Notes: generated by a model not told the origin, from the sequence alone. Counted from the first letter of the stretch, positions 10,532 through 32,000 are shown. The stretch is DNA of 32,000 bases from Gemmata obscuriglobus (GCF_008065095.1 NZ_CP042911.1:4350001-4382000), one strand, 5' to 3'. A program made the numbers and translations.

Positions 10532-10533
10532 CC

Positions 10534-12398: not shown

Positions 12399-12433
12399 CC
12401 GGTTCGGCCGGGCGGGGCGCATCCGCTCGGTTT

Positions 12434-12505: not shown

Positions 12506-12546
12506 CTGTGGTGTGTGAGTTCGTTTCCACGTCCCGAGGCCCTGTC

Positions 12547-14079: not shown

Positions 14080-14345
14080 GCTGTCCGACCTGCGCGCACA
14101 CGATGCAGACCGTGGTCGAGGCGGTGTTCTGGTGCCCCCGCTGCGGCTCCCTGCGGCTCGGGCCGGTGGGCGCGGCGGGCACCGTCGACCTGGAAGCCCC
14201 CGCGCTCGTCGCCCGCTGCCGGTCGTTCGTGGCCCGGGTGTGCGAGGACGTGGGCCGGTTCTCCGGGGCCGCCCAGTTGGTCGACACGCTGCACCGGTGC
14301 GGCGTCATCGAGTCGATCAACGCGCCCGAGGAGCGCCCGCAATGA
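14076..14345 (+). CDS. small zinc-ribbon protein
   Basis: GTGA overlap with the upstream stop. The CPTC...CPRC pair lies in the first 25 residues. Confidence 0.5.
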   Translation: MSCPTCAHTMQTVVEAVFWCPRCGSLRLGPVGAAGTVDLEAPALVARCRSFVARVCEDVGRFSGAAQLVDTLHRCGVIESINAPEERPQ

Positions 14346-15043: not shown

Positions 15044-15420
15044 GCAACGAAACCACCACCACCACCGCGCCGGAGCAGTGGGCGGTCGTCGAGCTGAAGG
15101 GGCACGTGCGGCTCGCGGGCCGCCTGTCCGAGGTGGAGATGTTCGGCACCAAGATGGGCCGGCTCGACATCCCGGCGGCGGACGGGTTCACGACCAAGCT
15201 GTTCCACGGGTCGAGCGTGTACGCGATCTCGTTCGTGGACGAGGCCGCGGCCCGGGCCGTGGCGGCCGCCAACGAGCACGAGCCGGTGCGCCCGTGGGAG
15301 CTGCCGAAACAGCTGCCCGCGGCGAGCGCGATCGACGTGAGCGGCGGGCCGAGGCACCACCTCGACCTGGACGACGGCGACGAGGGCGACGACCTGGGCG
15401 CCGACCGCCCGCTCTTCTGA
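15040..15420 (+). CDS. hypothetical phage protein with an acidic C-terminal tail
   Basis: ATGA overlap with the upstream stop, 126 aa, high GC3. The acidic tail (DLDDGDEGDDLG) and its position after the exonuclease would suit an SSB-like role, but no motif was recognised. Confidence 0.45.
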   Translation: MSNETTTTTAPEQWAVVELKGHVRLAGRLSEVEMFGTKMGRLDIPAADGFTTKLFHGSSVYAISFVDEAAARAVAAANEHEPVRPWELPKQLPAASAIDVSGGPRHHLDLDDGDEGDDLGADRPLF

Positions 15421-15451
15421 CCGCGTCCCGCGTTTTGCCCACCTGACTTCC

Positions 15452-17929: not shown

Positions 17930-17992
17930 GTTCCGGACCCCGCCGAACTATCCGAACAATCCGAGAAACGCCCGCCCCACGGACCCGGACCC

Positions 17993-18580
17993 ATGCCGAC
18001 GACCTACACGATCGCCGACGACGAGGTGTGCGCGCTGCTGGCCGAGGTGATGGGCTCGTGGCACCAGGACCTGCGGGACGCGGGGGTGAAGGTGGCGTGC
18101 CTGTTCGCGGCCAACGACAAGGGGCCGGCGCTGAAGCACGGCGGGTACCCGGTGCTCGCGTGCATCAAGATCGTGTCCCTCAAGGACCGGGTGACCAAGG
18201 CCCACGACGCCGAGCTCCTGATCGACGCGGGCGCCTGGAACGACCTCCGGTACGGGCAGCGGGTGGCGACCCTGGACCACGAGCTGAGCCACATCCGGCT
18301 GAAGAACTTCTGGCGCCGTCCGGTGCTGGACCGGGACAACCAGCCGACCGGGCAAACCGAGGTGGGCTGGGAGTCGGACGACCTGGGGCGGCCGGCGCTG
18401 AAGTCGGTGCCCGGGGACTGGTCGGCGGGGGACGGGTTCGCGGCGGTGGTGGCCCGGCACGGGCGGGACGCGATCGAGTTCCGCAACCTGGCGACCTGCA
18501 CCCGCGAGGCCGAGGCGGCGCTCGCGGCGGGGCAGGCCGCGCTGCTCGAACGGGCCACGCGGCCCGGAGGGTCCCTCTGA
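17993..18580 (+). CDS. putative phage metallopeptidase-like protein (HExxH)
   Basis: 195 aa with a single LDHELSHI (HExxH) motif. Confidence 0.5.
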   Translation: MPTTYTIADDEVCALLAEVMGSWHQDLRDAGVKVACLFAANDKGPALKHGGYPVLACIKIVSLKDRVTKAHDAELLIDAGAWNDLRYGQRVATLDHELSHIRLKNFWRRPVLDRDNQPTGQTEVGWESDDLGRPALKSVPGDWSAGDGFAAVVARHGRDAIEFRNLATCTREAEAALAAGQAALLERATRPGGSL

Positions 18581-18888
18581 TGGTCGCCCCGCGCAACACC
18601 CCGATCGACGGCACCCCGTGCCCGCAGTGCAAGCGCACCCGCGACGAGCACGGCTCGTGCTGGAAGTGCTTCACCCGGCCGTGCGTGCTGTGCGGGCTGG
18701 ACACCGGGAGCTGCCTGATCTCCTCGTGCATCGCCTGCCAGCGGTTCCTGCCGGACGCCCCGGAGCCCGCGCCGTGTCCGACTCCGACTCCCTGTTCGGG
18801 CTCTGGGTCCTGTGGTACCGGGCCGGCCCCCACGAGCGGTGGCGGGTCCACGGCACCGGCTGGTCCCGACCCGCTGCCCTGGTGCTGA
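18580..18888 (+). CDS. cysteine-rich (multi-CxxC) small protein; 3' part overlaps the next gene
   Basis: The ATG overlaps the upstream TGA by 1 nt. CPQC, CWKC, CVLC and CIAC motifs are present. GC3 is high only to about 18775. Confidence 0.4.
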   Translation: MVAPRNTPIDGTPCPQCKRTRDEHGSCWKCFTRPCVLCGLDTGSCLISSCIACQRFLPDAPEPAPCPTPTPCSGSGSCGTGPAPTSGGGSTAPAGPDPLPWC

Positions 18889-18980
18889 TGGACCGCGGCG
18901 GGGACTGGTTCCTGCTCGAGGAGGGCCGCGACCCGAACCGCCGCCCGCGCCGCCGCAAGAAGAAGAAAGGGCCGCGATGA
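18774..18980 (+). CDS. hypothetical protein with a basic tail
   Basis: The GTG at 18774 follows GGAG (18762-18765). GC3 switches to this frame here. The product ends RRPRRRKKKKGPR. Confidence 0.4.
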   Translation: MSDSDSLFGLWVLWYRAGPHERWRVHGTGWSRPAALVLMDRGGDWFLLEEGRDPNRRPRRRKKKKGPR

Positions 18981-19228
18981 CGACCTTCAAGGTGCACGAG
19001 CAGCACGAGGACCGCGACGACGCGATGGTGCTGGAGGCGGAAACGCCCCGGCACGCCGCCGACGAGTACGCCCGCCGGTTCATCCGGCGCGAGCTCGAGC
19101 GGTGGGGGCCGCAAGTCATCTGCCCCGACTACGTGATCCTGGTGCGCCGGCCCGGGGGCCGGCCGACGCGCTTCGTCGCGTACCCCACGCCGGGCGGCGA
19201 CGTGGCGGTCCGCACCATCCCCGATTGA
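18977..19228 (+). CDS. hypothetical protein
   Basis: ATGA overlap with the upstream stop, 83 aa, high GC3. Confidence 0.45.
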   Translation: MTTFKVHEQHEDRDDAMVLEAETPRHAADEYARRFIRRELERWGPQVICPDYVILVRRPGGRPTRFVAYPTPGGDVAVRTIPD

Positions 19229-19255
19229 ACCCCGAACGGAACGCAGGAGCCGGTC

Positions 19256-21463
19256 ATGGCCAAGAAGACGAACCCCGCTGCCGCGCCGGCCCCCGAGGTG
19301 CGGGCGCCCGCACCCGAGCGCCCCCCGGTCGGGCCGCCGGCGACGTTCGGGCCGGAGATCGTCGAGGACGTGCCGCTCGCGGCCGTCGCGCCGTGCCCGT
19401 TCAACGTGCGGCGGCACTTCGACCCGGCGGACCTCGCGTCCCTGGCGGACTCGATCCGGGCGCTCGGGCTGAAGGAGCCGCTGCTGGTGCGGCCCGTGGG
19501 CCGGGCCGGCGGGCCGGCCCCGGAGTGGAACGGGTACTCCTGGATCTACCTCGGCGAGCCCGCCTACGAGCTGGCCGACGGCGAGCGGCGGTTCCGGGCG
19601 CTGGCGCTCATTCATCAGGCGGGCGGGGATATCGGGATGGCCCCCCGGCCGAACGAGATCCCGGTGATCGTGCGGCCCATGACCGACGAGGCGGTGCGGG
19701 CGGTGATGCTGGTGAGCCGCGAGCAGTCGCGGGACCTGCGGACGAGCGAGCTGGTCGCCGGGTACACGGCCCTGGCGGTCGGGCGAACGGTCGAGCAGCT
19801 CGCGGAGTTCCTCGGCCGCAAGAACGAGATCGCCCACGTGCGGGGCGTGCTGAAGCTCGCCCGGCTGCCAGAGTGGGCGCTGGCCGCCATCGATGCCGGG
19901 AAGCTGAAGCCAGCGTCCGCGGTGCTCGTGGCCGGGCTGCACAGCGAGCCGAGCCGGAAGCGGGCCGCCGCGTGCGCCATCCTGGGATGGCACCACCCCG
20001 ACGACGAGGTGGACGCGCTTATCGCCGACCACTTTGACCGCGGCGAGGACCCGACCGAGGCGGACGATTGGGATTACGACGGACCGCTCACCTACCGGGA
20101 GCTCAAGGACCTGCTCGCGTCTGACTTCCAGCGGGAGCTGAAGTCGGCCCCGTTCCCGCGCCAGGCCCTCGACCTGCTGGAGGGCGTCGGCAGCTGCGAC
20201 GCGTGCCCGAAGCGGGCGGGCAACGACCCGGACGCGGTGGAAGCCAAGGTGCGGGCCGACATGTGCCTGGACCCGGAGTGCTACCGGGCCAAGGAAGAGG
20301 TGTGGAACACGCGGGTGGTCGAGGCGGCGAAGGCGAGCGGCAAGACGATCCTCCCGAAGAAGGACGCCGAGAAGCTGTTCAACCGGTACGGCGACGACTC
20401 CCTCGCCTACCGGTCCGGGTACGTCGACCTGGCCGCGACCTGCTACCAGGACAAGGAGAAGCGCACGTACGGGGCGCTCCTCAAGGGGCACGTGGCCGAC
20501 GACCAGGTGGCGATCGCGGTCGGGCCGAAGACCGGGAAGCCGTTCGAGCTGGTCAAGGAGGACCTCGCCGACACGGTGCTGAAGGCGAAATACAAGATCG
20601 GCGAGCGGCCGGGCACGTCCGGGTCGAACGACAAGTGGCTGAAGGAGCAGCGGGAGCGGAAGAAGAAGGCCGAACTCGGCCGGGCCGCGGCCGCGGTCGC
20701 GAACGGGCTCGTCGCGGCCCAGGTCAAGGAAAAGCTCCCGCCGGGCTTCCCGGTGTTCCAGGGCGGGGTCCCGCTCCTCCAGCAGGTGGCCGCGACGGTC
20801 GCGAGCTTCGGCGGCTCCGAGGTGTGCCGGGTGGTGGCGAAGCGCCGGGGCCTCCCGCTCAAAGACCCGCACGCGCACCGCGAGGCGGTCTCCGCACTCG
20901 CGTTCACGCTCGCCGAGCCCCGGGACCTGATCGCCCTGGTCGCCGAACTGGCCGCCACTTACCGCACCATGAGCTGGGCGAGCGAGTACGCCCGGGACAA
21001 CGTCAGCAAAGAGGAGCGGGCGTTCTTCGCCGCGTTCGGCATCGACCGCAAGACGCTCACCCAGGACGCCGCGGCCGAGAAGAAGGCCGCGAAGGCCTCC
21101 AAGAAGAAGGACAAGAAGAAGTCGGCCGGGGGCGGGGTGCCGGCGCCCGCACCGGTCGCACTCACTACCTGGGACGGCGTCCCGAACTTCCCGGAGCAGG
21201 CCGCCGCCCACCTCGCGACCAAGGGCGTGAACACCGTCGCGGACCTCGACGCGGTCGTGGAGCGGCTGAAGCGCGGGGACGGGGGCGCGGCCCGGCCGAA
21301 CGGGGCCGCCAACCGGTACACCGCGCTCAAGGAGCTCGGGGTGCCGCCCGACGTGGTCTACCAGGCCGGCGACGCGCTGGTGGACTGGGAGGGCGCGAAG
21401 GGCGCCCCCGCGGCCGCCGCGGCCCCGAAGCCGAAGGGCAAGCGGAAGGCGGGTGCCGCATGA
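19256..21463 (+). CDS. ParB-like nuclease (ParB/Srx N-terminal) domain protein, large
   Basis: 735 aa. The N-terminus has PFNVRRHFDPADLASLADSIRALGLKEPLLVRP and LADGERRFRAL (ParB box pattern). A Cys cluster (CDACPKR...CLDPEC) and lysine-rich tracts are also present. Confidence 0.72.
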   Translation: MAKKTNPAAAPAPEVRAPAPERPPVGPPATFGPEIVEDVPLAAVAPCPFNVRRHFDPADLASLADSIRALGLKEPLLVRPVGRAGGPAPEWNGYSWIYLGEPAYELADGERRFRALALIHQAGGDIGMAPRPNEIPVIVRPMTDEAVRAVMLVSREQSRDLRTSELVAGYTALAVGRTVEQLAEFLGRKNEIAHVRGVLKLARLPEWALAAIDAGKLKPASAVLVAGLHSEPSRKRAAACAILGWHHPDDEVDALIADHFDRGEDPTEADDWDYDGPLTYRELKDLLASDFQRELKSAPFPRQALDLLEGVGSCDACPKRAGNDPDAVEAKVRADMCLDPECYRAKEEVWNTRVVEAAKASGKTILPKKDAEKLFNRYGDDSLAYRSGYVDLAATCYQDKEKRTYGALLKGHVADDQVAIAVGPKTGKPFELVKEDLADTVLKAKYKIGERPGTSGSNDKWLKEQRERKKKAELGRAAAAVANGLVAAQVKEKLPPGFPVFQGGVPLLQQVAATVASFGGSEVCRVVAKRRGLPLKDPHAHREAVSALAFTLAEPRDLIALVAELAATYRTMSWASEYARDNVSKEERAFFAAFGIDRKTLTQDAAAEKKAAKASKKKDKKKSAGGGVPAPAPVALTTWDGVPNFPEQAAAHLATKGVNTVADLDAVVERLKRGDGGAARPNGAANRYTALKELGVPPDVVYQAGDALVDWEGAKGAPAAAAAPKPKGKRKAGAA

Positions 21464-21621
21464 CCCTGATCCTGCGCGTCGTCGAGCCGGCCACGCCGGT
21501 CGACCTCGGGGCGGCGGGCGTGTGCCGGGTGGGGCTGGCCGAACTGGTGGGCGCCTGGGGCCGCGGGCCGGTCCGGCACGTGGTGTACCTGGGCGACTGG
21601 AACGTGGGGGCCGCGGCATGA
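21460..21621 (+). CDS. hypothetical small protein
   Basis: ATGA overlaps at both ends, 53 aa. Confidence 0.35.
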   Translation: MTLILRVVEPATPVDLGAAGVCRVGLAELVGAWGRGPVRHVVYLGDWNVGAAA

Positions 21622-21863
21622 GCCTGAACGACCTGATCGCGGCGCTGGGCCTGGTCCTGCCGACGATCAATTGCAACCAGCCCCGGGCCGCGGTGCTGCG
21701 GGACGTCCGGGCCGGGCTCGACGCCGCGCTCCCCAACTGGCGCGAGGTCGCGGCCGCCGACGGCCGGATGCAGCACTTCCGGGCCACGGTGCAAGCCCCA
21801 CACGGCGGCCCGGTGCACGTCGGCCTGATCCTGTGGTCGCGGACGGAAACGGGGGACGAATGA
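21618..21863 (+). CDS. hypothetical protein
   Basis: ATGA overlaps at both ends, 81 aa. Confidence 0.4.
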   Translation: MSLNDLIAALGLVLPTINCNQPRAAVLRDVRAGLDAALPNWREVAAADGRMQHFRATVQAPHGGPVHVGLILWSRTETGDE

Positions 21864-22714
21864 GCAAGGTCACCGCACTCGCACCGTGGTTCGGCAGCAA
21901 CCGCACCCTCGCGGAGAACGTGGGGGCGGCCCTGGCCGGGTGCCGCTGGGTCGGGGTGCCGTTCGCCGGCGGCATGAGCGAGCTGCTGCACATTCAGGCG
22001 CCCACGGTGGTAGTGGGGGACTTGCACCCCCACGTGCTGAACCTCGCGGCCGTGGTCGCGAACCCTTGCCTCCGCGCCGAGTTGGTCGAGCGGCTTGACG
22101 GACTGCCGTACCACCCCGATGTCCTCAAAGCGGCTCAGCAGCGGTGCGCCGAACGGGAGGGGGCCTTCGACGACGGTTGGTTCGGTGAGGGCGGCTTGAT
22201 CGGGAACAGCGTGGACCTTGATTGGGCCTGTGACTACTTCGTGTGCGCGTGGATGTCTCGCAACGGCTGCGCGGGCACTCGGAACGAGTTCACGAGCTCC
22301 TTCAGCGTTCGCTGGGACGCCGGCGGCGGGGATTCCGCGACCCGGTTCCGCAATGCAACGGCCGGACTCGTCGAGTGGTCCGCGATCATGCGGGCCTGCA
22401 CCTTCGTGCGGCTGGACGTGTTCCAGTTCCTCGCCGCGGTCAAGGATCTGGCGGGGCACGCGCTGTACCTCGACCCGCCGTTCCCGAAGGTGGGCGACGC
22501 GTACAAGTTCGGCTTCGGCGAATCGGATCAGCGGCGGCTCGCGAAGGAGCTCGCCGGCTTCAAGACGTGTCGAATCGTGGTGCGGTACTATGACCACCCG
22601 CTGATTCGCGAACTGTACCCGGAACCGCTGTGGACCTGGCACCGGTTCACCGGGCGGAAGCAAACCAATGCGGCGGCGAATGAGGAAGTGCTCCTGGTGA
22701 GGAACGCGGCATGA
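21860..22714 (+). CDS. DNA N6-adenine methyltransferase (Dam / D12 class)
   Basis: 284 aa. It has PWFGSNRTLA near the N-terminus, an AdoMet motif (VPFAGGMSE) and a catalytic YLDPPFP (DPPF) motif. Confidence 0.72.
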   Translation: MSKVTALAPWFGSNRTLAENVGAALAGCRWVGVPFAGGMSELLHIQAPTVVVGDLHPHVLNLAAVVANPCLRAELVERLDGLPYHPDVLKAAQQRCAEREGAFDDGWFGEGGLIGNSVDLDWACDYFVCAWMSRNGCAGTRNEFTSSFSVRWDAGGGDSATRFRNATAGLVEWSAIMRACTFVRLDVFQFLAAVKDLAGHALYLDPPFPKVGDAYKFGFGESDQRRLAKELAGFKTCRIVVRYYDHPLIRELYPEPLWTWHRFTGRKQTNAAANEEVLLVRNAA

Positions 22715-22881
22715 TGATCAAGATCGAGAAGATCCCGCAGGGCGTGCAGGTCACCGTCACCCCGAGCGGCGCGAAGAAGCCGGTCACGTTCGTGATCCAG
22801 CCCGGTCAGCTGGGGTTGATCACAGAGATGCTGCGGACCGCCATGAGTGCCGAGACCTTCAAGTTCGAGCTGCAGCTATGA
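22711..22881 (+). CDS. hypothetical small protein (below the ORF-track size cut-off)
   Basis: My own translation gives MMIKIEKIPQGVQVTVTPSGAKKPVTFVIQPGQLGLITEMLRTAMSAETFKFELQL. ATGA overlaps at both ends. Confidence 0.4.
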   Translation: MMIKIEKIPQGVQVTVTPSGAKKPVTFVIQPGQLGLITEMLRTAMSAETFKFELQL

Positions 22882-23720
22882 GCGAGCGGGCCGGGTTCCT
22901 CAGCGCGATCCTCGAGAGCCCCGCGGACGACACCGCGCGGGCCGCGTACGCGGACTGGCTCCGCGAGCAGCCGGGGGCGTTCGACCGGCTGCACGGGCGG
23001 TTCCTGTGGGCCGGGCTCACGCTGGCCCGGTTCCGCGGCCAGGAGGTGGTCGAGGACGGGATGTTCTTCGACGCCCTGAGGGACCAAGCCGAGGCGGCGC
23101 CCGAGGTCATCGCGGTGCAGTTGCAGCACGTACTCGGGTGGGGCTGGAACGCCACCGAATGGGCCTGGGACAACGAGACCGCGGCCCCGGACCGGATCCA
23201 CGTGGCGACGATCCCGCCCAAGGTGGCGAACGAGACCCCGGCCGAGCGTCGGGAGCGGCGGCGATCGGGGCGGGCCCGGACGACCGCGGCCGGTTACGAG
23301 CGCGGGTGCCTCACGTGGGTGCGGGTCCGCGCCAAGCAGTGGGAGCTCGCGGGCGAGAAGATCCTTGGGAGTTGTCCGCTCCAGCGGGTCGAACTGCTGG
23401 AACTGCCGGGGCTGGTGCTGAGCATCGAGAGCGACGACGGCTGGCGGTTGCGTGGCGAACTCCGGCCGCCGTTGACTCAGCGCCTCGACCGGGCGGGCAC
23501 GGCGGCCGCCCCGATCGAGGCATCGGAGCCGGATCGGATGGAGGAGGGCTTCGCGCGTGACAAGTTCGTTCGGCGGTTCGCCCACTCCACCTGGGCGGTG
23601 CTCACGCGTCTGCACTTCATGGCCGGGTTCGCGTGGCCCGGGCCGCTGCCGGAAAGCATGATGGGACCCGGCCCGTACGTCGGAGTCGATCCTTCGCCGG
23701 AGTTGCTCGGAGGGATTTGA
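22878..23720 (+). CDS. TIGR02996 (repeat-companion) N-terminal domain protein
   Basis: The N-terminus (FLSAILESPADDTARAAYADWLREQ) matches the Gemmata-type TIGR02996 pattern as I recall it. The rest has no recognised motif. Confidence 0.6.
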   Translation: MSERAGFLSAILESPADDTARAAYADWLREQPGAFDRLHGRFLWAGLTLARFRGQEVVEDGMFFDALRDQAEAAPEVIAVQLQHVLGWGWNATEWAWDNETAAPDRIHVATIPPKVANETPAERRERRRSGRARTTAAGYERGCLTWVRVRAKQWELAGEKILGSCPLQRVELLELPGLVLSIESDDGWRLRGELRPPLTQRLDRAGTAAAPIEASEPDRMEEGFARDKFVRRFAHSTWAVLTRLHFMAGFAWPGPLPESMMGPGPYVGVDPSPELLGGI

Positions 23721-23831
23721 TCCGCACCACATCTCGTTCACCCGCAGAGCCGGGCACCCCAGCGGTGCGCCGGCTCGCGTTCGTTTCATGCCCCCGCACC
23801 TCTCGTTTCGCGCGCCACGTGCGTGAGTCCA

Positions 23832-23897
23832 GAGGCCCTATAAGGGGTCTTAAGAGAGTAATTTCTTACCACTCAAAATATCCCTTATAGGGGCCTC
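23832..23897. promoter_or_regulatory. AT-rich inverted repeat upstream of terS (candidate terminator / late-operon control / pac-related site)
   Basis: GAGGCCCTATAAGGG (23832-23846) pairs with CCCTTATAGGGGCCTC (23882-23897) with one bulged G. The pair flanks a 35 nt AT-rich loop in an otherwise very GC-rich element. Confidence 0.45.
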
Positions 23898-24014
23898 CCC
23901 GCCCCCGGCTCGCACTTCGCGCGTGAATCGAAACCCCGCCTTCCCGCGGCTTTCATCCGGGCAACCCGGGGCGGCATCATCAGTAGCGGAAACAAGAGGA
24001 TTCTGGAGCCTCCG

Positions 24015-24626
24015 GTGGCGGGCACGGGCGAGGACAAACTGAGCGCCCGGCAGGAACTCGCCATCGTGGCCCTGCTCGGGTCGTCCACGGTCAAAGGGGC
24101 CGCCGAGCAGGCCAAGGTGTCCGAGGCCAGCCTGTTCAAGTGGCTCAAGGACCCGGCGTTCAAACAAAGATTATCGTATGTTCGCAAGATAGTTACGGAT
24201 CAGGCGTTCACCGCGGTGGGCACGGACCTGCAGGAGATCGGGCGGAACGCGGTGGCGACGATCAAGCGGAACCTGGGGCCGCCCGCGCCGCCGGCGGTGC
24301 AGGTGCGGGCCGCGACGGTGGCCCTGGACAAGCTCGCCAACTGGCAGATGGTGGCGGACCTGCAGGAGCAGATCGAGGGCCTCAAGGCGCAACTGGCGGG
24401 GCAGGCGCATGGCGAGCATCGCGAGCCTCCGGGCGCAGGTGGCGAAGCTGCGGGCGCAAGCGGCGGCGCGGATGCGGTGCGGGTCGCGGGAGACGCTGGA
24501 GCGGCTGCGGGCGGACCCGACGCTCCCGTTCACGGCGATGGGGTGGCGGCCGGACCCGTGGCAGGCCCGGTTCCTGACGAGCCCGGGGAAGCGGGAGTCG
24601 CTCCTCTGTTCCCGCCAGGCGGGTAA
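24015..24626 (+). CDS. terS: terminase small subunit-like HTH protein (3' 218 nt overlap terL out of frame)
   Basis: The GTG start follows GGAG. The HTH-like segment is RQELAIVALLGSSTVKGAAEQAKVSEASLFKWLKD. It lies immediately upstream of terL. GC3 drops after about 24409. Confidence 0.5.
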   Translation: MAGTGEDKLSARQELAIVALLGSSTVKGAAEQAKVSEASLFKWLKDPAFKQRLSYVRKIVTDQAFTAVGTDLQEIGRNAVATIKRNLGPPAPPAVQVRAATVALDKLANWQMVADLQEQIEGLKAQLAGQAHGEHREPPGAGGEAAGASGGADAVRVAGDAGAAAGGPDAPVHGDGVAAGPVAGPVPDEPGEAGVAPLFPPGG

Positions 24627-25269
24627 GAGCACCGCGACCGCGGCCCGCGTCGTGCGGGAGGCGCTCCTGTACCCGCGGGCCGACTGCCTCGTGTTCTGCC
24701 CCACGATGCGGCAGAGCATGGAAATGCTCCGCAAGGTGCGCGACTTCTACCGCGCGCTGGGGAGCCCGGTGGCCGAGCTCGCGGACACGAAGACGAGCCT
24801 CGAGCTGGCGAACGGGTCGCGGGTCATCAGCCTGCCCGATTCGCAGGAGGGCGTGGTCGGGTTCAGCGCGCCGCGGCTGGTCGTGATCGACGAGGGGAGC
24901 CGGGTCAGCGACGAACTGTACAAGAGCGTCCGCCCGATGCTCGCGGTGTCGAAGGGCCAGTTGCTCACGCTATCGACGCCGTTCGGGAACCAGGGCTGGT
25001 TCTTCGACATCTGGGACGACAGCGCCGAAGGGTTGAAGCGGCGGTCGAAGCTGCACGAGCCGTGGCAGCGGACCGCGGTGCCGGCGAGCCAGATCCCGCG
25101 GATCACGCCCGAGTTCCTGGAGGACGAGCGGGCCGAGCTGGGCGAGCGGTGGTTCCAGCAGGAGTACTTCCTCCGGTTCCTCGACTCGATCGACGCGGTG
25201 TTCAGTCAGGCGGTGATCCACGGGGCCCGGTCCGAAGGGATCGAGCCCCTGTTCGACCTGGGGGCGTAA
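24409..25269 (+). CDS. terL: terminase large subunit, ATPase domain only
   Basis: 286 aa. Walker A (CSRQAGKST), Walker B (RLVVIDEGS) and the coupling motif (LTLSTP) are present. It ends just after the QQEYFLRF hinge-like segment. Confidence 0.8.
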   Translation: MASIASLRAQVAKLRAQAAARMRCGSRETLERLRADPTLPFTAMGWRPDPWQARFLTSPGKRESLLCSRQAGKSTATAARVVREALLYPRADCLVFCPTMRQSMEMLRKVRDFYRALGSPVAELADTKTSLELANGSRVISLPDSQEGVVGFSAPRLVVIDEGSRVSDELYKSVRPMLAVSKGQLLTLSTPFGNQGWFFDIWDDSAEGLKRRSKLHEPWQRTAVPASQIPRITPEFLEDERAELGERWFQQEYFLRFLDSIDAVFSQAVIHGARSEGIEPLFDLGA

Positions 25270-25288
25270 TGAATGTCGGCCGAAGTAT

Positions 25289-25573
25289 TTACTTCGTGTT
25301 GTAGAGACCGGAAGCGGTCTTTACATTGTCGAGCAGGCATTTGTCCTCACTGCCACTGACGAGGCCGATGATGGCACCGACCACACCCCCGACGACCGTT
25401 CCGACAACCGGAACAACGGAACCGGCCGCTGCTCCGGCCATCATGCCACCCATCGCACCGAGCTGTGACCCGAGAACACTGTGGGCGGCCTGATCGGCGG
25501 CTTCGTCGCCACCCCGCTTCCGCTCCGCCTCAATGATCTCGCGAGCCTGATGGACTGCGCCCCAGAACGGCAT
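25289..25573 (-). CDS. glycine-zipper membrane protein (moron inside the split terL)
   Basis: I trimmed the track ORF to the ATG (complement of 25571-25573), which has a strong AGGAGGAG SD. The product has GAMGGMMAGAAAGSVVPVVGTVVGGVVGAIIGLV. GC is visibly lower than the surroundings. Confidence 0.6.
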   Translation of the reverse strand: MPFWGAVHQAREIIEAERKRGGDEAADQAAHSVLGSQLGAMGGMMAGAAAGSVVPVVGTVVGGVVGAIIGLVSGSEDKCLLDNVKTASGLYNTK

Positions 25574-25900
25574 AGCTCTCCTCCTAAACATTGACTTCGA
25601 TGCTAGATCGAAGTCAGATAATCGAACCGAGTTGGCGGGTCTCTGTTGCCGCCAACCACTACCCATTGTTACGCACGCGAGGTGATTTTATTTATGAAAT
25701 CCATCTACTCATTATAATCTCATAAAATATGGCATTGCCCCTCTAGGGCGATAAAAGTCAGGCCAGGTGGCTGATTCCAGTGCTCGGCAGTAGTTGGCCC
25801 ATCGCACCACACCATTCCATCCGGGCAACCCCCTCCCGCACACTGGGCTCGTCTGGTGCGGGCGCCCGCACCTCCGCTCCGTCCGCCGAGGGCCCCGACC

Positions 25901-26305
25901 GTGCCGAACGTGAAAGCGATTCTCCTGGCCGTTCTGAAGGGCGCCGCGTGCCTGTTCGTGCGCTCGCGCCTCGACAACGTGGTGTCGCCCCCGAGCACCT
26001 TCACGCCCCCGTCCGTCATTACGCCCACCGTGGGGCGGGTGGTGTGGTTCTTCCCGGCGGACCGCGCCCCGAGCGATCAGCCGCTGCCGGCGCTCGTCGC
26101 CCACGTGTGGAGCGACACGGTGGTGAACCTCGCGATCTTCGACGCGAGCGGTAACCCGGTGCCGAACCCGCCCACGTCGGTGCCGCTGCTCTCCGCGAGC
26201 AGCGTGCCTCCTGGCGGCGGGCCGTACTGCACCTGGATGCCGTACCAGCAGGGCCAGGCCGCGAAGACCGATGCCCTGGCGAAGCAGCTGGCGGCGCGGT
26301 CGTGA
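25901..26305 (+). CDS. hypothetical protein with an N-terminal hydrophobic segment
   Basis: The GTG at 25901 follows GAGGG. The product begins VPNVKAILLAVLKGAACLFV..., and GC3 is high. The start choice is uncertain (track start 25856). Confidence 0.42.
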   Translation: MPNVKAILLAVLKGAACLFVRSRLDNVVSPPSTFTPPSVITPTVGRVVWFFPADRAPSDQPLPALVAHVWSDTVVNLAIFDASGNPVPNPPTSVPLLSASSVPPGGGPYCTWMPYQQGQAAKTDALAKQLAARS

Positions 26306-26402
26306 ACCCGAACCCGCCCACGTCCGACCCGGACCGGCGGGCGGACCCGTGGGGCCGCGACGACGGCCGGCACGATTACGACGTGGTTCCGAGGGGCGGG
26401 CT

Positions 26403-27134
26403 GTGGGAGTGAACCCCGAGAAGCTGTTCAGCGGGCTCGACCTCGGCAAGGCCGCGGACTTCAGCGTCCTGGCCACGGTCGGGCGCCGCAAGCTCGACCG
26501 CCCCGTGGCGAAGCGGCGGTTCAGCTACTCGGTCCGGTGGCTGCAGAGCTGGGACCTGGGCACGCGGTACACCGCGACCCGGCCCGGCGAGCGGTCCGTG
26601 ATCGGCGACGTGAAGGCGCTGTACGAGCAGCCGGCGCTGACGTGGACGACGCTCGCGGCGGACTACACCGGCGTCGGCATGGCGGTGATCGAGCAGGTCA
26701 TGGCGGCCAAGGTGAAGGCCCGGTTGCACCCCGTGTGCATCACCGCGGGCCACTCGATCAGCACGCCCGACGAGACCAAGGACCGCTCCTGGCACGTGCC
26801 AAAGAAGGAACTGGTCTCGACGCTGGTCGTGCTGCTGGAGAACGAGCTGCTCAAGTGGCAGGCCCCGAACACCCGCGGGGCGCTGCCGCTGATCGGGCGG
26901 TTCGAGAAGGAACTGCAGGCGTTCCGCGAGCACGTGACGAAGTCGAAGAACGTGACCTTCGGGGCCGAGCAGAGCCAGCACGACGACATCGTGATGGCTG
27001 TTGCGCTGTGCTGCTGGCTGGCGGAGCACAGCGGGGGCGGGGACGCGGCCGGGATCGGCGTGCCCGACGAGCGGGACGCGAGCGCGGTGGGCGGGGCGCC
27101 CGCCGGCGTGTTCGCCAGCGGGAACGGGGTGTGA
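26403..27134 (+). CDS. terL: terminase large subunit, RNase H-like nuclease domain only
   Basis: The GTG at 26403 (or 26409) follows GAGGGG. The motifs GLDLGKAADFSVLA and QHDDIVMAVALCCW fit the terminase nuclease acidic residues. The stop at 27132-27134 sits at the junction with the attC-like repeat. Confidence 0.72.
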   Translation: MGVNPEKLFSGLDLGKAADFSVLATVGRRKLDRPVAKRRFSYSVRWLQSWDLGTRYTATRPGERSVIGDVKALYEQPALTWTTLAADYTGVGMAVIEQVMAAKVKARLHPVCITAGHSISTPDETKDRSWHVPKKELVSTLVVLLENELLKWQAPNTRGALPLIGRFEKELQAFREHVTKSKNVTFGAEQSQHDDIVMAVALCCWLAEHSGGGDAAGIGVPDERDASAVGGAPAGVFASGNGV

Positions 27135-27141
27135 GGGGCGA

Positions 27142-27188
27142 TGCGTCGCAAATCAGCCGGCGGTGTCAGGTGCAGCGCCGGGTTCGGC
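27142..27188 (-). repeat. attC-like site A, truncated (R''-L'' arm and part of the loop only)
   Basis: TGCGTCGCAAATCAGCCGGCGGTGTCAGGTGCAGCGCCGGGTTCGGC matches the right (+ strand) half of the other copies. The left arm is replaced by the terL 3' end. Confidence 0.75.
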
Positions 27189-27220
27189 TCGACAACCGGT
27201 GCTTGGCGCGGCCCGTCGAG

Positions 27221-27790
27221 TTAAACGGCCATTTGAACGGTAACGCCACGCCTGCTGAGCTCGTTCACGAACGAGAGCAGCGCACCTTGGTCGAACGCTA
27301 CATGCACGAGGCAGAAGGTCACCTGCCGACCGTTCCTGTCGGTGACGTGCATCCGCCCCTTCTTGATGAACCCTACCATGCTGAAGCCGTCAGCTCGCGC
27401 GAGGAGTTGTCCCGAACCGTTTTGCAGTTCGCCGACGGCGACGGCCCTCAACTTGTCTGTGTGGTATCGTTGCTCGATGAAGCGACCGGCCAAGCCACCT
27501 GGCGTTAAACCTCGAATGATGACCTCGTCCTTTCGCAGGCAGAGCCGGCACTGCGACAGGCAGGAGACCAAGTACCGGACATACCAGACTGTACTCAGCA
27601 GGACAACTGGAGCGGTGATCCCGTTAACGATCGGTCTGACCAGATCGGCTCGTAATCGGCCGTCGAAAACGATCCAGAGGCCGCCCCCGACAAAGAGGTA
27701 GTACATGACCAAGACGATCAGCCACTCCGGCCGAAGCTGCGCCAGGAGGCCAAGGAAAATTTGTGCGCGGGTGCGAGCAAAAAAGCTCAT
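27221..27790 (-). CDS. cassette ORF 1: membrane protein (about 3 TM) with a soluble C-terminal domain, unknown function
   Basis: I trimmed the track ORF 27221..27862, whose first 24 codons lie in the repeat, to the ATG (complement of 27788-27790) after AAGGA. It has hydrophobic segments (WLIVLVMYYLFVGGGLWIVF, ITAPVVLLSTVWYV). Confidence 0.55.
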   Translation of the reverse strand: MSFFARTRAQIFLGLLAQLRPEWLIVLVMYYLFVGGGLWIVFDGRLRADLVRPIVNGITAPVVLLSTVWYVRYLVSCLSQCRLCLRKDEVIIRGLTPGGLAGRFIEQRYHTDKLRAVAVGELQNGSGQLLARADGFSMVGFIKKGRMHVTDRNGRQVTFCLVHVAFDQGALLSFVNELSRRGVTVQMAV

Positions 27791-27832
27791 CTCACGTCCT
27801 TTGGTCCGCCTCCTCGACGACCCGCCTTTGCC

Positions 27833-27923
27833 GCCGAACATACAGCTCACCTGCACCGCCATCTCCGGATGAGCAATGCGTCCCGAATCAGATGGCGGTG
27901 TCAGGTGCAGCGCCGGGTTCGGC
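27833..27923 (-). repeat. attC-like site B
   Basis: GCCGAAC (27833-27839) ... GTTCGGC (27917-27923), 91 nt, with the shared stem, bubble and bulge architecture. Confidence 0.8.
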
Positions 27924-28439
27924 TGCCTTTTGCCTAGAAGCTAGGAAAGAGCGCACGAACGCCGCCTGTCGCTGGACTCCGACGTTGGGATGCGTCGCCA
28001 TTGCTTCCAGAATTTGACCGCAATCTTCGGGGTCTGCGAGGCCGGACCAGAGCAGTTGGTCAACGATCCCTGCACCCCACACCTGCACGCCCTCATCTTC
28101 ATCGCCGAGGAATTCAGCCGCCCAAGCGATCCCTCTTCCGTCGGCAACCATCCGAAGCAGCTCGACGGCTGATCTTCGGGACTCTGCGTCCGCCTCACTG
28201 CGAGCAATCTCCAGGCACCGCTCCATCGCTGATAACGGCTTTAAGAGGGCAAGCACTGAGCGGGCCAACTCGCTGCCCGGTGCGCCCGCGACGTAATAGT
28301 CCACGGCGGATCGAAGGGAATCAACACCGACGATCAACTCCAGCGCTTGACGGCCCAAGTCCGAGCCGCCACTTTCGCCACCATCACGAAGAGTGCCGAG
28401 TTTCTGGGCCAGAGCGTGCCAATCCACCAGCCCCACCAC
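27888..28439 (-). CDS. cassette ORF 2: helical-repeat (HEAT-like) protein, unknown function
   Basis: The GTG (complement of 28437-28439) follows CAGAGGG. The ORF reads into attC-like site B and stops there, with the tail AEPGAAPDTAI. The HEAT-like impression comes from repeated helical segments only. Confidence 0.5.
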   Translation of the reverse strand: MVGLVDWHALAQKLGTLRDGGESGGSDLGRQALELIVGVDSLRSAVDYYVAGAPGSELARSVLALLKPLSAMERCLEIARSEADAESRRSAVELLRMVADGRGIAWAAEFLGDEDEGVQVWGAGIVDQLLWSGLADPEDCGQILEAMATHPNVGVQRQAAFVRSFLASRQKAAEPGAAPDTAI

Positions 28440-28454
28440 GGAAGCCCTCTGGGT

Positions 28455-28546
28455 GCCGAACATAAAGCTCACCTGCACCGCCCCCTGCCAAGGGAGCGAT
28501 GCCATCCAAGCTACATGGCGGTGTCAGGTGCAGCGCCGGGTTCGGC
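28455..28546 (-). repeat. attC-like site C
   Basis: GCCGAAC (28455-28461) ... GTTCGGC (28540-28546), 92 nt. Confidence 0.8.
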
Positions 28547-28552
28547 GTGCCT

Positions 28553-28897
28553 TTACTCCGCGCACAGGAAACCCGCGGCCTGCCACGCCGCAAAGCTCTG
28601 GGCTACTGGCTCAAAGCAGTCCGGCGTCATTGCCCCCATGCCGACGCTGTGGACCTGCCCGTCCGCGAGCGACAGCACGAGCGCGACCCCGCCGCTGTTG
28701 TCGCCGATCATCAGGTGCCCTGGGCAGTACGCCCGCGACTCGTGGGTGTCATTCCGCTCCATCACGGCGGTGCGACCGTACACCAGCGTCCGCCCATTGG
28801 CCGCGAGGAACGACACGGCGGTGCCCGCTAGGAAGGAACGGTACGGCTCCGGCAGCGGTCGCCCGAGCCATGTCTCGACCTCTTCCAGCGACTGCAC
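28553..28897 (-). CDS. cassette ORF 3: SMI1/KNR4 (SUKH-1)-family protein, immunity-protein-like
   Basis: The GTG (complement of 28895-28897) follows GGAGGG. The segments LEEVETWLGRPLPEPYRSFL, LMIGDNSGGVALVL and SFAAW follow the SUKH pattern. Confidence 0.62.
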   Translation of the reverse strand: MQSLEEVETWLGRPLPEPYRSFLAGTAVSFLAANGRTLVYGRTAVMERNDTHESRAYCPGHLMIGDNSGGVALVLSLADGQVHSVGMGAMTPDCFEPVAQSFAAWQAAGFLCAE

Positions 28898-28915
28898 GCC
28901 CTGCGCCCTCCGGTG

Positions 28916-29004
28916 GCCGAACAAATAGCTCACCTGCCGCGGGGTGAGCGAAACGGTCAGGAAACGACGCATTTGACGCGGTCAGGTGCAGCGCCGGGTT
29001 CGGC
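28916..29004 (-). repeat. attC-like site D
   Basis: GCCGAAC (28916-28922) ... GTTCGGC (28998-29004), 89 nt. The inner stem differs in sequence (CCGCG/CGCGG) but still pairs. Confidence 0.78.
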
Positions 29005-29024
29005 CTCTTGGGCGCTGCATGTGG

Positions 29025-29375
29025 TTAACCGACCGGTCCCTTCGTCGGCGGGACCGGGTCGGGGGTACATGGCGAGCGGGTGAGGGCGGTTGTGAGTCCA
29101 CCGCCGATGCGGTAGAGGAGCACCGCGAGGTCGCGGGCACCGATCCCGGCGCACGCCAGCAGCAGAGCGGACAGCAGCCACACAACCACTGACTCGGACG
29201 AGAAGAAGAACCGCTCAAGAGCGGCAGCCCACCACTGGGCGCTGCCGCTCGGGGACACACCCGTCATACTTGCGAAGGCGAAGGCTACGACGAGCGGCCA
29301 CCCGATCGCCGCGGCCATCATGGCGGCAAGGAGCAGCCGCGCGACCAAGAAGCCCGAGCTAACGTGCTTCGTCAT
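29025..29375 (-). CDS. cassette ORF 4: small membrane protein (about 3 TM)
   Basis: The ATG (complement of 29373-29375) follows CAGAGG, giving MTKHVSSGFLVARLLLAAMMAAAIGWPLVVAFAF... Confidence 0.5.
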   Translation of the reverse strand: MTKHVSSGFLVARLLLAAMMAAAIGWPLVVAFAFASMTGVSPSGSAQWWAAALERFFFSSESVVVWLLSALLLACAGIGARDLAVLLYRIGGGLTTALTRSPCTPDPVPPTKGPVG

Positions 29376-29391
29376 CGCTCTACCTCTGCTT

Positions 29392-29504
29392 GCCGAACGA
29401 TGAAGCTCACCGGCCCGGCCGCGACGCCAGTGTGCGGCAGAGACGCGCAGGGAGCAACGGGAAACAGACGACGTGGCCGGGTCCGGTGCAGCGCCGGGTT
29501 CGGC
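29392..29504 (-). repeat. attC-like site E
   Basis: GCCGAAC (29392-29398) ... GTTCGGC (29498-29504), 113 nt. The stems carry compensatory changes and the loop is longer. Confidence 0.78.
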
Positions 29505-29513
29505 CTCGGCCAC

Positions 29514-29876
29514 CTACACGTCGCGGTGAAACAGCCGCCGCACCTCGGCCTCGTACTCGGCAGCCAACCCGAACTCCTCCGGTTGCCGGGTGTGGTTGCC
29601 GAACAGGTCGGCCATCGCGATCCGCCACGCTCCCGCGTGCGTCATCAGCCCGCGCTTGTCCATCGGCTCGTAGTGAAACCGTGCCACGCTTCGGCGGTGA
29701 GCCTCGTCCGGCTCAACACCGCCGATCTTGACGAGCACCCACGCGTACAGCTGCTGCTCGGCCTCCAGGTACGGGACGTACTCCGCGTCCGGCCACCAGT
29801 CAACTGGGCGAGTTGCCGCCGACTCCGCTCGCTGGCGGACTCGGGTGAGCCAGTTGTCCGGCTGCGGTTCCGCCAT
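29514..29876 (-). CDS. cassette ORF 5: hypothetical protein
   Basis: The ATG (complement of 29874-29876) follows CAGAGGAG. The 120 aa product starts MAEPQPDNWL... Confidence 0.5.
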   Translation of the reverse strand: MAEPQPDNWLTRVRQRAESAATRPVDWWPDAEYVPYLEAEQQLYAWVLVKIGGVEPDEAHRRSVARFHYEPMDKRGLMTHAGAWRIAMADLFGNHTRQPEEFGLAAEYEAEVRRLFHRDV

Positions 29877-29894
29877 CCGGTGGACTCCTCTGTG

Positions 29895-29985
29895 GCCGAA
29901 CAAATAGCTCACCTGCACCGCCATCACCGGATGAGCAGTGCGTCACAAATTAGATGGCGGTGTCAGGTGCAGCGTCGGGTTCGGC
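29895..29985 (-). repeat. attC-like site F
   Basis: GCCGAAC (29895-29901) ... GTTCGGC (29979-29985), 91 nt. Confidence 0.8.
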
Positions 29986-30441
29986 GTGCCTCTGCTCCGG
30001 AGGCAGCCCGCCCTGATGCCGGATGAACGCCAGTCCCGTGGGATCGTAGTACCCCGGCGCGTGGACGCTCACGCTGTCGAACGTGAAGCCCTGGTCGCCG
30101 TCCTCGTCCGACACGCAACTCCGCCACAGGCCCATGCGCAGATCGGGGAAGTAGTACGAGTGCCGCCCTGGCCGGTACACTTCTGGCGCCAACCCGAGCC
30201 GCTCGGCGATCTCGGCGATGACCTCGTCGGCCCCGGCCTCGAACAGGTCGATGCCCTCGAACGATCCCCAGTGCTTGGGCGATTCGACGAACGCCACCAC
30301 CGGTGGATCACCGCGGAAATCCACCCGGATGTCGCGATCCTGGTCGAGCAGGGGTTGTACTTCCGCGCGGGTCATGCCCAGCCGCACCATGCCGGCGAGC
30401 GACCGGATGCCGATGTGCGGGACCACCTCATCCGCTGCCAT
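29950..30441 (-). CDS. cassette ORF 6: hypothetical protein
   Basis: The ATG (complement of 30439-30441) follows CAGAGGG. 163 aa. It reads into attC-like site F and stops there, with the tail AEPDAAPDTAI. Confidence 0.55.
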   Translation of the reverse strand: MAADEVVPHIGIRSLAGMVRLGMTRAEVQPLLDQDRDIRVDFRGDPPVVAFVESPKHWGSFEGIDLFEAGADEVIAEIAERLGLAPEVYRPGRHSYYFPDLRMGLWRSCVSDEDGDQGFTFDSVSVHAPGYYDPTGLAFIRHQGGLPPEQRHAEPDAAPDTAI

Positions 30442-30455
30442 CAGCGCCCTCTGTT

Positions 30456-30546
30456 GCCGAACATACAGCTCACCTGCACCGCCATCACCGGATGAGCGGT
30501 GCGTTCCGAATCAGATGGCGGTGTCAGGTGCAGCGCCGGGTTCGGC
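30456..30546 (-). repeat. attC-like site G
   Basis: GCCGAAC (30456-30462) ... GTTCGGC (30540-30546), 91 nt. Confidence 0.8.
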
Positions 30547-30634
30547 TCGCCTTGCTCGGGACTGAATCGGCCGCGCCCCGTCAGCAGAGCCGCCAAATGA
30601 GGCAAGCGACACCGCCGGTCAACGTTACGCCGGG

Positions 30635-31045
30635 TTAGGACTCTGCTTGGCTCCACTCAGCCAGCGCCGCCCCGGCACGCCGCAACTCCGCCCGCACGAC
30701 GCTCAGCGTGGCGTCCGTTTGCCAGCAGCAGGCGTCGTCGGAGGTCGAGCCCATGTACACGCCGAGCAGCACCCGGCCGTCGTCCCCGGCCTCGGCCCGT
30801 AGGGTAAAGTCCTCCCCGCTCGCCGTCCACTGCCGCTCGCGGCCGGCGGCGACACCCGCCGCCGATATGAGGAAGTCGCCGAGCTGTCCCATCCCAGGGA
30901 AGGCGGGCTCGGCGTCGGGATCAACGGACACGGCGGCCTCGAACGCCGTTCCGCGGAGCCACGCCACCAGTACGCCCGGCAGGTCTGGGTCGGGCGACAG
31001 CGACAGCGACATACCCGCCGCCTCAGCGATAGTGACGACCGCCAC
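30635..31045 (-). CDS. cassette ORF 7: hypothetical protein
   Basis: The GTG (complement of 31043-31045, or 31049-31051) follows GGAGG. About 136 aa. The stop lies 88 nt before attC-like site G. Confidence 0.45.
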   Translation of the reverse strand: MAVVTIAEAAGMSLSLSPDPDLPGVLVAWLRGTAFEAAVSVDPDAEPAFPGMGQLGDFLISAAGVAAGRERQWTASGEDFTLRAEAGDDGRVLLGVYMGSTSDDACCWQTDATLSVVRAELRRAGAALAEWSQAES

Positions 31046-31068
31046 GAGCACCTCCGGGTGCCTTTGGT

Positions 31069-31159
31069 GCCGAACGAACAGCTCACCTGCACCGCCACAT
31101 CCCGAGCAGCGATGCGTCCCGAATCAGCCGGCGGTGTCAGGTGCAGTGCCGGGTTCGGC
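31069..31159 (-). repeat. attC-like site H
   Basis: GCCGAAC (31069-31075) ... GTTCGGC (31153-31159), 91 nt. Confidence 0.8.
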
Positions 31160-31170
31160 GTGTCCCACAG

Positions 31171-32000
31171 TTATTCTGTGCGGAAGGGCCTACCAGCCTC
31201 GTAGAGTTTCAATCGCGCCTGCATGGCCTTCCGTTGTTCATCCGCCTTGGGGCCGAGCAACTCGATCGCTTTCTTTTGCGACTTGATTGCCTCATCGAAC
31301 TGACCAGCCTCCGCGTAGGCGGCCGCCACCGTATCAAGGCACTCCGGTCGCTTTCCTCCGGATTTCTCATTCGACTTACTGGCGTATTCCAACGCCTTCC
31401 TGCCGTCGCGGAACTTGGGGTCGGGGCACGTTGCCAGCTGCCACGCCCAACTGTTGAGGAGGTTGGGATAGTCGGGATCACGCGTCAGCGCCTTCGCGAA
31501 GTCGGCCTGGGCATTGGCAAAGTCTTTCAGCGCGTGGCGCGCTTGGCCCCGCCGGTAATGCACCATTTCCATCTCCGGGTCGAGCCGCAGAGCCTCGGTG
31601 TAATCGGCCACGGCCTTAATGCTGTCCTGCTTGTACCACTGGTAGGCGCGGCCCCGGTAATGATGTGTGTGCGCCAGACACTTGTCTTTGCCGTCTCCGT
31701 TCCTGGAGAAATCGGTGCCGCCTTCGATCACCTTGGTGTAGTCAGCGATGGCCTTGTCGTACTCGCGCAGGGACTCATAGGCGAGGGCGCGATTGAACCG
31801 AGCACTGAAGCCCTTGGGATCGATCACCAGGATCTTCGTCAAGTCGGCCACCGCCTTCGCATACTCTCGCTTGTCGAGAGCGGGATGGCCGGCGTAGAGC
31901 GAACTGCGGCTGAAGTAGGCTTCCACGAACTGGGGGTCGAGTTCGATGGCCTTTGAGTAATCGGTAATGGCTTCGGTGTAGCGCCTGTTCTGCTCGTGGG
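31171..32000 (-). CDS. tetratricopeptide (TPR) repeat protein, 5' end beyond the right edge
   Basis: It has repeated 34-residue units (A..Y..AI.LDP...A...RG). My translation shows the frame stays open upstream of the track start (…HEQNRRYTEAITDYSKAIELDPQFVEAYF) to the window end. The stop lies 11 nt from attC-like site H. Confidence 0.75.
   Translation of the reverse strand, partial: HEQNRRYTEAITDYSKAIELDPQFVEAYFSRSSLYAGHPALDKREYAKAVADLTKILVIDPKGFSARFNRALAYESLREYDKAIADYTKVIEGGTDFSRNGDGKDKCLAHTHHYRGRAYQWYKQDSIKAVADYTEALRLDPEMEMVHYRRGQARHALKDFANAQADFAKALTRDPDYPNLLNSWAWQLATCPDPKFRDGRKALEYASKSNEKSGGKRPECLDTVAAAYAEAGQFDEAIKSQKKAIELLGPKADEQRKAMQARLKLYEAGRPFRTE

Follow-up and report, generated by a model that had tools for sequence, protein, structure and literature searches.

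The right-hand end of a 32,000-nucleotide (nt) stretch of the Gemmata obscuriglobus chromosome (GCF_008065095.1, NZ_CP042911.1:4350001-4382000; this whole stretch is called the window, and positions are counted from its first letter) contains a family of hairpin-forming repeats that alternate with short open reading frames (ORFs). The repeats are very probably genuine integron attC sites, and this part of the window the distal end of a large cassette array. Eight members of the family, all co-oriented, are recovered by a repeat search and by nhmmer, seven full and one truncated, which reproduces the set given in a preliminary description made from the sequence alone. That description placed the start of the truncated copy at 27142; the copy is present, but similarity begins at 27133/27134, in the stop codon of the neighbouring gene. 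The copies are listed below.

27134-27188, minus strand: truncated attC of cassette C1, the last of the array; its nhmmer match covers no more than model positions 1-55
27833-27923, minus strand: full attC, the plus strand being the recombinogenic bottom strand; predicted crossover between A27838 and C27839
28455-28546, minus strand: full attC; predicted crossover between 28460 and 28461
28916-29004, minus strand: full attC, divergent stem variant CCGCG/CGCGG with compensatory changes; predicted crossover between 28921 and 28922
29392-29504, minus strand: full attC of the long class (~112 nt), stem variant CCGGCC/GGCCGG; predicted crossover between 29397 and 29398
29895-29985, minus strand: full attC; predicted crossover between 29900 and 29901
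30456-30546, minus strand: full attC; predicted crossover between 30461 and 30462
31069-31159, minus strand: full attC; predicted crossover between 31074 and 31075

The full copies measure 89-113 nt, and all seven begin with GCCGAAC and end with GTTCGGC, the boundaries originally noticed. Folded as single-stranded DNA, the plus strand of every full copy forms a 7-base-pair (bp) terminal helix, an internal loop, a long stem and a variable loop. The internal loop had been described as a 5x5-nt bubble throughout; this holds for six copies, whereas the copy at 29392-29504 has 6 nt on the 5' arm and hence a 6x5 loop. The bottom-strand 5' spacer varies in sequence (ATACA, ATAAA, AAATA, GAACA and others). 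The stem is interrupted only by two single-base bulges, a C and a T, both located on the 3' arm. These folds, the check called for in the preliminary description, return the unpaired T and C of every copy and their position on the 3' arm of the strand opposite the ORFs. Fold z-scores against shuffled sequences range from -2.1 to -5.6. Folding of the minus strand mirrors this, its bulges falling on the 5' arm.

This anatomy corresponds to that of attC sites. In the bottom strand of an attC, R' (5'-RYYYAAC-3') pairs with R'' (5'-GTTRRRY-3') and the central spacer of 5-6 nt is unpaired; near L'', two extrahelical bases are set 6 bp of stem apart, the one at position 16 being in most cases G and the one at position 23/24 a conserved T (Nivina et al. 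2016, PMC5027507). In the folded bottom strand these bases protrude from the arm facing the AAC triplet, whereas in the top strand the bulged arm carries the triplet itself; the total length ranges from 57 to 141 bp (PMC5027507). Counted from the 3' end of the plus strand, the bulges in every copy are C16 and T23, separated by the 6 bp CAGGTG, and the AAC triplet lies on the 5' arm, opposite the bulged one. This identifies plus as the bottom strand and puts the ORFs on the top strand, the arrangement of functional cassettes. The R box, the central spacer, the extrahelical bases, the variable terminal structure and the length, which falls inside the published range, all agree with attC anatomy.

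The structure is conserved among relatives. In an alignment of 134 distinct members from the window, two G. obscuriglobus arrays and other Gemmataceae, standard pairs occupy 92.5% of cells, compared with 25-41% when the partners are slid by 1-3 columns. Double-sided changes are found in 11 of the 18 L-box and stem pairs (306 cells), covarying stems including CACCGCC/GGCGGTG, CCGCGA/TGCGCGG and CCCGGCC/GGCCGGG. The R-box helix is 98.9% paired, with near-invariant AAC/GTT triplets, and displays no covariation because it is essentially invariant. On the top strand G16 is invariant and A23 is conserved in at least 90% of copies; the terminal loop is variable. This is the attC pattern, in which sequence is kept at the integrase-binding part and structure alone is kept further along the stem.

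A published covariance model, built from 188 planctomycete attCs, has the consensus GCCUAAC-AAuGC-GUU-G-CAgC ... GCUG-AaC-(spacer)-GUUAGGC, with position 16 unpaired (Ghaly et al. 2021, PMC8352920, supplementary file 3). Applied to both strands of the whole window as the emission probabilities of its 34 conserved positions, rather than as the full covariance model, it gives the seven full copies 33.5-37 bits, in the minus-strand (ORF-sense) orientation only. Nothing else on either strand of the window passes on this score, and the best of 20 shuffled windows reaches 21 bits. Rfam at the gathering threshold, run on the window and three array loci, returned a tRNA only and no attC match. The attC architecture proposed in the preliminary description is borne out by the R'/R'' pairing, the unpaired spacer, the extrahelical bases 16 and 23 and the stem covariation, and finds further support in this partial score.

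The family extends well beyond the window. In a scan of one genome per species, the 24-nt R''-spacer-L'' motif occurs in 76 stretches, nearly all from Gemmata or other Gemmataceae; the carriers are Gemmata, Zavarzinella, Limnoglobus, Frigoriglobus and metagenome-assembled genomes (MAGs). Because the same 24-mer recurs in these 76 stretches and 256 distinct full-length copies were collected, a chance origin of the repeats is excluded. Lengths are bimodal, at about 89-92 nt and about 111-113 nt. Each length class has its own conserved stem and loop sequence, and the two are interleaved within the same arrays (L012, L014, L021, L044 and others); the window copy at 29392-29504 represents the long class. 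With the Planctomycetes attC class (PMC8352920) the family shares the 7-bp R box, the 5-nt spacer, the following 3 bp, the unpaired top-strand G16 and the stem, together with a similar L-box core (G-Y-T / G / C-A-S-C ... G-S-T-G / A-R-C). It differs from the consensus GCCUAAC...GUUAGGC of that class in having G/C at the fourth and fourth-from-last positions, states that occur at a frequency of about 5-7% in the Planctomycetes model, and its conserved stem is much longer.

In four stretches (L006, L026, L051 and L007) the same attC family lies next to integron integrases that score 368-449 bits on NCBIfam TIGR02249 (cutoff 265). In each, the integrase precedes the first attC by 0.7-1.6 kb and shares the strand of the attC top strand. 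Because it adjoins TIGR02249-positive integrases in these stretches, the Gemmataceae attC family is one used by real integrons in this bacterial family. An arrangement in which intI is co-oriented with the cassettes is known as inverted (PMC3607928, PMC4889954). L006, L026 and L051 resemble this inverted integron-integrase group, of the Treponema denticola type, in having intI transcribed towards the cassettes; the arrangement is known from these relatives only, not from the G. obscuriglobus array.

The Gemmataceae-type 24-mer also occurs in MAGs labelled Alcaligenaceae or beta proteobacterium (L007, L069, L025 and L032), accompanied by an integron integrase in L007 and L069, the latter frameshifted. 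Its presence in these Betaproteobacteria-assigned MAGs reflects either cross-phylum transfer of cassettes or integrons or mis-binning of contigs. A scan of IMG/VR gave one lone attC of the family, at 2729-2819 of L083 (IMGVR_UViG_2600255093_000004), on a contig classed as viral. It has a degenerate R' (CATTCGGC) and follows one ORF; L083 contains no array and has no similarity to the phage block of the window.

Cassette proteins, that of C5 among them, map the window to CP025958.1 at about 3.63-3.65 Mb, in reversed orientation. The array continues rightward to at least window-equivalent position 55,961, 24 kb past the window, and is still going there (L004, L081 and L084). It numbers no fewer than 48 attCs, every one in the same orientation, along at least 28.8 kb. 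Two insertion sequence (IS) elements of the DDE_Tnp_1 type lie inside it:

L084 6549-7694 (window-equivalent about 48.5-49.6 kb): first IS element
L084 11076-12233 (window-equivalent about 43.9-45.1 kb): second IS element

The first resides within a non-coding cassette; terminal inverted repeats (GGGCAAACGCACTCAATCC) mark its ends and the target is duplicated over 13 nt (GGTGGCCCGGGCA), so that the array is continuous across it. A second array, of at least 41 attCs, is located 0.8 Mb away, at 2.81-2.83 Mb of CP025958.1. It answers the question, raised in the preliminary description, of whether paralogous arrays exist, and it shares permuted, near-identical cassettes with the first. The attC totals of both arrays are lower bounds, the upstream end of neither having been reached. 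In the extended locus and in the second array the called genes lie almost all on the top strand.

The eight cassettes of the window each contribute one ORF:

C1, 27221-27790, minus strand: 189 aa, with the ATG at 27790 as start; hydrophobic segments near the N-terminus; no family match
C2, 27888-28442, minus strand: weak HEAT-repeat similarity; stop codon inside the attC at 27833-27923
C3, 28553-28879, minus strand: SMI1/KNR4 (SUKH-1) protein of an immunity-type class; Pfam PF09346, 26.2 bits (cutoff 25.4)
C4, 29025-29375, minus strand: small hydrophobic protein; no family match
C5, 29514-29876, minus strand: 120 aa; no family match
C6, 29950-30441, minus strand: 163 aa; stop codon inside the attC at 29895-29985; identical protein in the second array
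C7, 30635-31051, minus strand: weak DUF6228 similarity
C8, 31171-32000, minus strand: TPR-repeat protein, 311 aa in the full contig, its N-terminus beyond the window end

One minus-strand ORF is thus found in every interval, as first described, and two ORFs end within the repeat while the remaining ones stop 6-88 nt away from it, in line with the limit of 88 nt given earlier. A test of the longest ORF in each interval was uninformative, long frames being open on both strands at 68% GC, and annotated gene calls were used in its place. The further claim that cassettes use more A/T-ending codons holds only partly: the GC content at third codon positions is 0.64-0.86 in cassettes and 0.81-0.98 in the flanks. 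Gene callers start ORFs at ATG or GTG codons inside attCs, giving N-termini of the form MAVQVS(C/Y/F)xFG... (window 27833-27862 and 29895-29927), and public annotation places a wrong-frame 131-aa ORF (30703-31098) over C7. Both are annotation artefacts of attC sequence, and recognising the attCs would improve the annotation of the G. obscuriglobus genome.

PADLOC detects no known defence genes among the eight cassettes. The SUKH/SMI1-KNR4 cassette is present in four copies in the array of the window (28553-28879 in the window; L081 2522-2866, 9542-9886 and 15135-15479) and in one copy in the second array (L001 10566-10910), with about 95-100% protein identity, and its repetition is the result of cassette duplication within the array. 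Beyond the window the arrays contain further SUKH genes, an alpha/beta hydrolase, a PsbP-like protein and homologues of Barstar and of ribosomal protein S21. The second array encodes two ribosomal protein S21 homologues (L001 3311-3565 and 15783-16037) and a Barstar-family RNase inhibitor (L001 7830-8432). Small, often immunity-type and mostly unknown proteins of this sort are the typical cargo of sedentary chromosomal integrons.

A further cassette family has no convincing ORF. Its members are 450-550 nt long, share about 80% mutual identity and contain 2-3 tandem GC-rich units of about 101 nt, with no match in Rfam. They account for approximately 11 of 48 cassettes in the array of the window and 13 of 42 in the second array, and the first IS element is inserted in one of them. 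Their positions are:

L084 357-571, 1335-1524, 8071-8381 and 10712-10925: ORF-less cassettes in the array of the window
L001: many further copies

Cassettes have been reordered between the two arrays. The SUKH cassette of the window (28452-28937) recurs in the second array with 99.8% identity, the C6 and C7 block (29892-31159) with 99.05% identity, and a three-cassette block from beyond the window with 99.25% identity. The second array reads (C7 C6)(SUKH X Y) in one contiguous run, whereas the order in the array of the window is (SUKH' X Y)-TPR-(C7 C6)-C5-C4-(SUKH). The breakpoints of the permutation fall inside attCs. Judged from sequence comparison, the permuted blocks look like the product expected of attC x attC excision and re-insertion; homologous recombination between attCs of about 90% identity may be an alternative source.

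In the proposed explanation, which is very probable, positions 27134-32000 form the distal, promoter-far end of a very large chromosomal cassette array, each unit being a mobile gene cassette made of a presumably promoterless minus-strand ORF followed by its attC. When single-stranded, the plus (bottom) strand would fold each attC into a hairpin whose shape the tyrosine recombinase IntI would read: R and L boxes, the unpaired spacer between them and the flipped-out C16 and T23. Recombination between two attCs would excise a cassette as a circle, and recombination between attI and attC would re-insert it beside the integrase gene and its promoter. Cassettes far down the array would constitute a silent stockpile unless they possess promoters of their own. 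We infer, rather than observe, ongoing recombination in this genome and the integrase that would perform it.

Several observations weigh against this assignment. Position 16 of the bottom strand is C instead of the usual G, and R' has a purine as its fourth base (GCCGAAC against RYYYAAC). The bottom strand has a folding advantage of only about 0.8 kcal/mol on average over the top strand, and the Planctomycetes model enters through 34 positions instead of as a whole. Neither the window nor the next 24 kb upstream of it yielded an intI, attI or cassette promoter (Pc). When three Gemmataceae IntI proteins were compared by tblastn with the array DNA followed upstream of the window, the best match had E = 0.09 and no integrase remnant appeared, and among the best 120 homologues of a Gemmata IntI none lies on a contig of G. 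obscuriglobus size (roughly 9 Mb). A close intact IntI may thus be absent from this genome.

The absence of intI and attI from the window had been stated at the outset and is confirmed. The only tyrosine recombinase there (8732-9823) was considered as a candidate intI and rejected, as it scores 24 bits on TIGR02249 (cutoff 265) and matches the phage integrase family phrog_1. An integrase had been expected to the right. The right is indeed the promoter-near side of the array, but 24 kb in that direction yielded only cassettes and the two IS elements. Since those 24 kb gave no intI, the array should be one of two things: a long sedentary chromosomal integron with intI further away, or a cluster of attC sites lacking integron integrase (CALIN; Cury et al. 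2016, PMC4889954). If intI lies at the upstream end, the array would count as a sedentary integron that is complete and of the inverted type; if intI is absent, both arrays would be unusually large CALINs.

A possibility that deserves serious weight, though it is somewhat improbable, is that of a fossil CALIN, in which the attCs are true but no functional IntI exists in G. obscuriglobus, the cassettes are frozen, and the permutations stem from homologous recombination between attCs or from old activity. The failure to find intI upstream or among the best homologues fits this account, as does the distance of 0.8 Mb between the arrays, which allows at most one of them to adjoin a single intI. 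The IS elements inside the array and the truncated terminal attC are signs of decay, and half of the known CALINs lie in genomes without IntI (PMC4889954). However, shared cassettes that are 99-99.8% identical and yet reordered imply recent exchange, and full stem pairing with invariant R boxes in about 90 copies suggests ongoing selection. The negative evidence on intI covers only part of the genome, neither array having been followed to its upstream end.

In its general features the Gemmata locus resembles a CALIN, with an attC cluster, no intI nearby, IS elements within and next to the cluster, and more than one cluster in the genome. It differs in size: most CALINs are small, with a mean of 5 attCs and only 6.6% exceeding 10 (PMC4889954), while the Gemmata array has at least 48 and an upstream edge beyond the DNA followed. 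A stronger proposition is that G. obscuriglobus holds at least two giant arrays (at least 90 attCs) without a linked integrase, and possibly with none in the genome, whose cassettes are still shuffled and include the non-coding cassettes of 101-nt units. This is doubtful as a whole. If true, cassette shuffling would be going on in a genome that has no integrase, driven either by one that is present transiently and acts in trans or by homologous recombination between attCs, and the approximately one quarter of cassettes that have tandem 101-nt GC-rich units and no ORF would represent a new kind of non-coding cargo.

Readings that set integrons aside fare much worse. GC-rich imperfect palindromes that are intergenic and very abundant in one genome recall repetitive extragenic palindromes (REP), bacterial interspersed mosaic elements (BIME) or miniature inverted-repeat transposable elements (MITE), but such an identity, unrelated to integrons, is highly improbable here. 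The copies lie in a single orientation at 78 of the 79 loci with matches, and their median spacing of 545 nt leaves room for one short ORF; the dispersal in random orientation that the preliminary description had named as contrary evidence is not seen. The geometry of the bulges is specific to attCs, and the copies keep their AAC/GTT ends, match the published attC model and adjoin IntI genes in relatives. There are no target-site duplications or transposase-type ends.

Scarcely credible as the sole explanation are transcription terminators or mRNA-stabilising 3' stem-loops following each gene of an operon-like cluster: a hairpin with a stable stem does follow each ORF stop at 0-88 nt, but no T-run follows the stem, conservation falls on the unpaired bulges and AAC/GTT ends rather than on stem strength, two ORFs end inside the hairpin, and ORF-plus-hairpin modules are permuted between loci. 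A terminator role could coexist with the attC role as a secondary function.

To the left of the array, the window contains host genes and a prophage-like block:

1-8.1 kb: host genes (MgtE, PanC, CYTH, CorA, extracytoplasmic function (ECF) sigma factor)
8732-27134: prophage-like block with phage integrase, AAA_24, YqaJ exonuclease, Prim-Pol/DUF3987 primase, metallopeptidase, ParB and methyltransferase

The large terminase of this block is encoded as two genes (24409-25269 and 26271-27134), whose profiles, phrog_7579 and phrog_27743, are matched full-length; between them are a lysin-like ORF (25289-25666, minus strand) and another phage ORF. The block contains no portal, capsid or tail genes and is for this reason a truncated remnant or a satellite. 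A tRNA-Met (CAT) at 12434-12506 lies inside it, 2.6 kb from the integrase, and may have come with the phage or mark a former site of integration.

The stop codon of the terminase-nuclease gene (26271-27134, stop 27132-27134) runs straight into the loop of the last attC. This truncated site keeps R'', the spacer, L'' and most of the loop, while the L'-R' arm with the AAC cleavage site is missing, and C1 is therefore no longer excisable through its own site. Because the break lies in the hairpin loop and not at the AAC crossover, the junction suggests a deletion or illegitimate joining rather than a product of the integrase. With a tyrosine recombinase 17 kb to the left and phage-derived DNA abutting the truncated attC, the repeats might be taken for sites used by that phage-type integrase or by the adjoining prophage instead of IntI, but this is exceedingly improbable, given its failure on TIGR02249 and its match to phrog_1, its place at the distal, wrong end of the array, the position of the junction, and the second and related arrays that have no such phage neighbour.

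As a very probable integron-type array, the Gemmata locus can be compared with sedentary chromosomal integrons such as the Vibrio cholerae superintegron with its VCR (V. cholerae repeat) attCs. Both have tens of co-oriented cassettes, attCs that are highly similar within the array (about 85-95% identical in Gemmata), mostly short ORFs of unknown or immunity/antitoxin type, duplicated cassettes and IS elements inside the array. They differ in the host, here a planctomycete of about 68% GC; in the attC family, here GCCGAAC...GTTCGGC with extrahelical C16 and T23 on the bottom strand; and in the Gemmata array having no linked intI within the DNA followed, with at least two large arrays on the chromosome. 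Integrons and CALINs are known, including in Planctomycetes (PMC2426708, PMC4889954, PMC8352920), and a literature search found no paper describing integrons in Gemmata. The kind of element is thus well known, and the host has not previously been described specifically for it.

In conclusion, the repeats define a Gemmataceae-specific attC family and extend integron biology to a large-genome, high-GC planctomycete. With at least 48 and at least 41 sites, the two arrays are among the larger known, and they are rich in SUKH/SMI1-KNR4 and Barstar-type immunity genes. They form a natural system for asking what sedentary integrons store, and offer a way to test whether large arrays last and keep shuffling when no integrase is linked to them.

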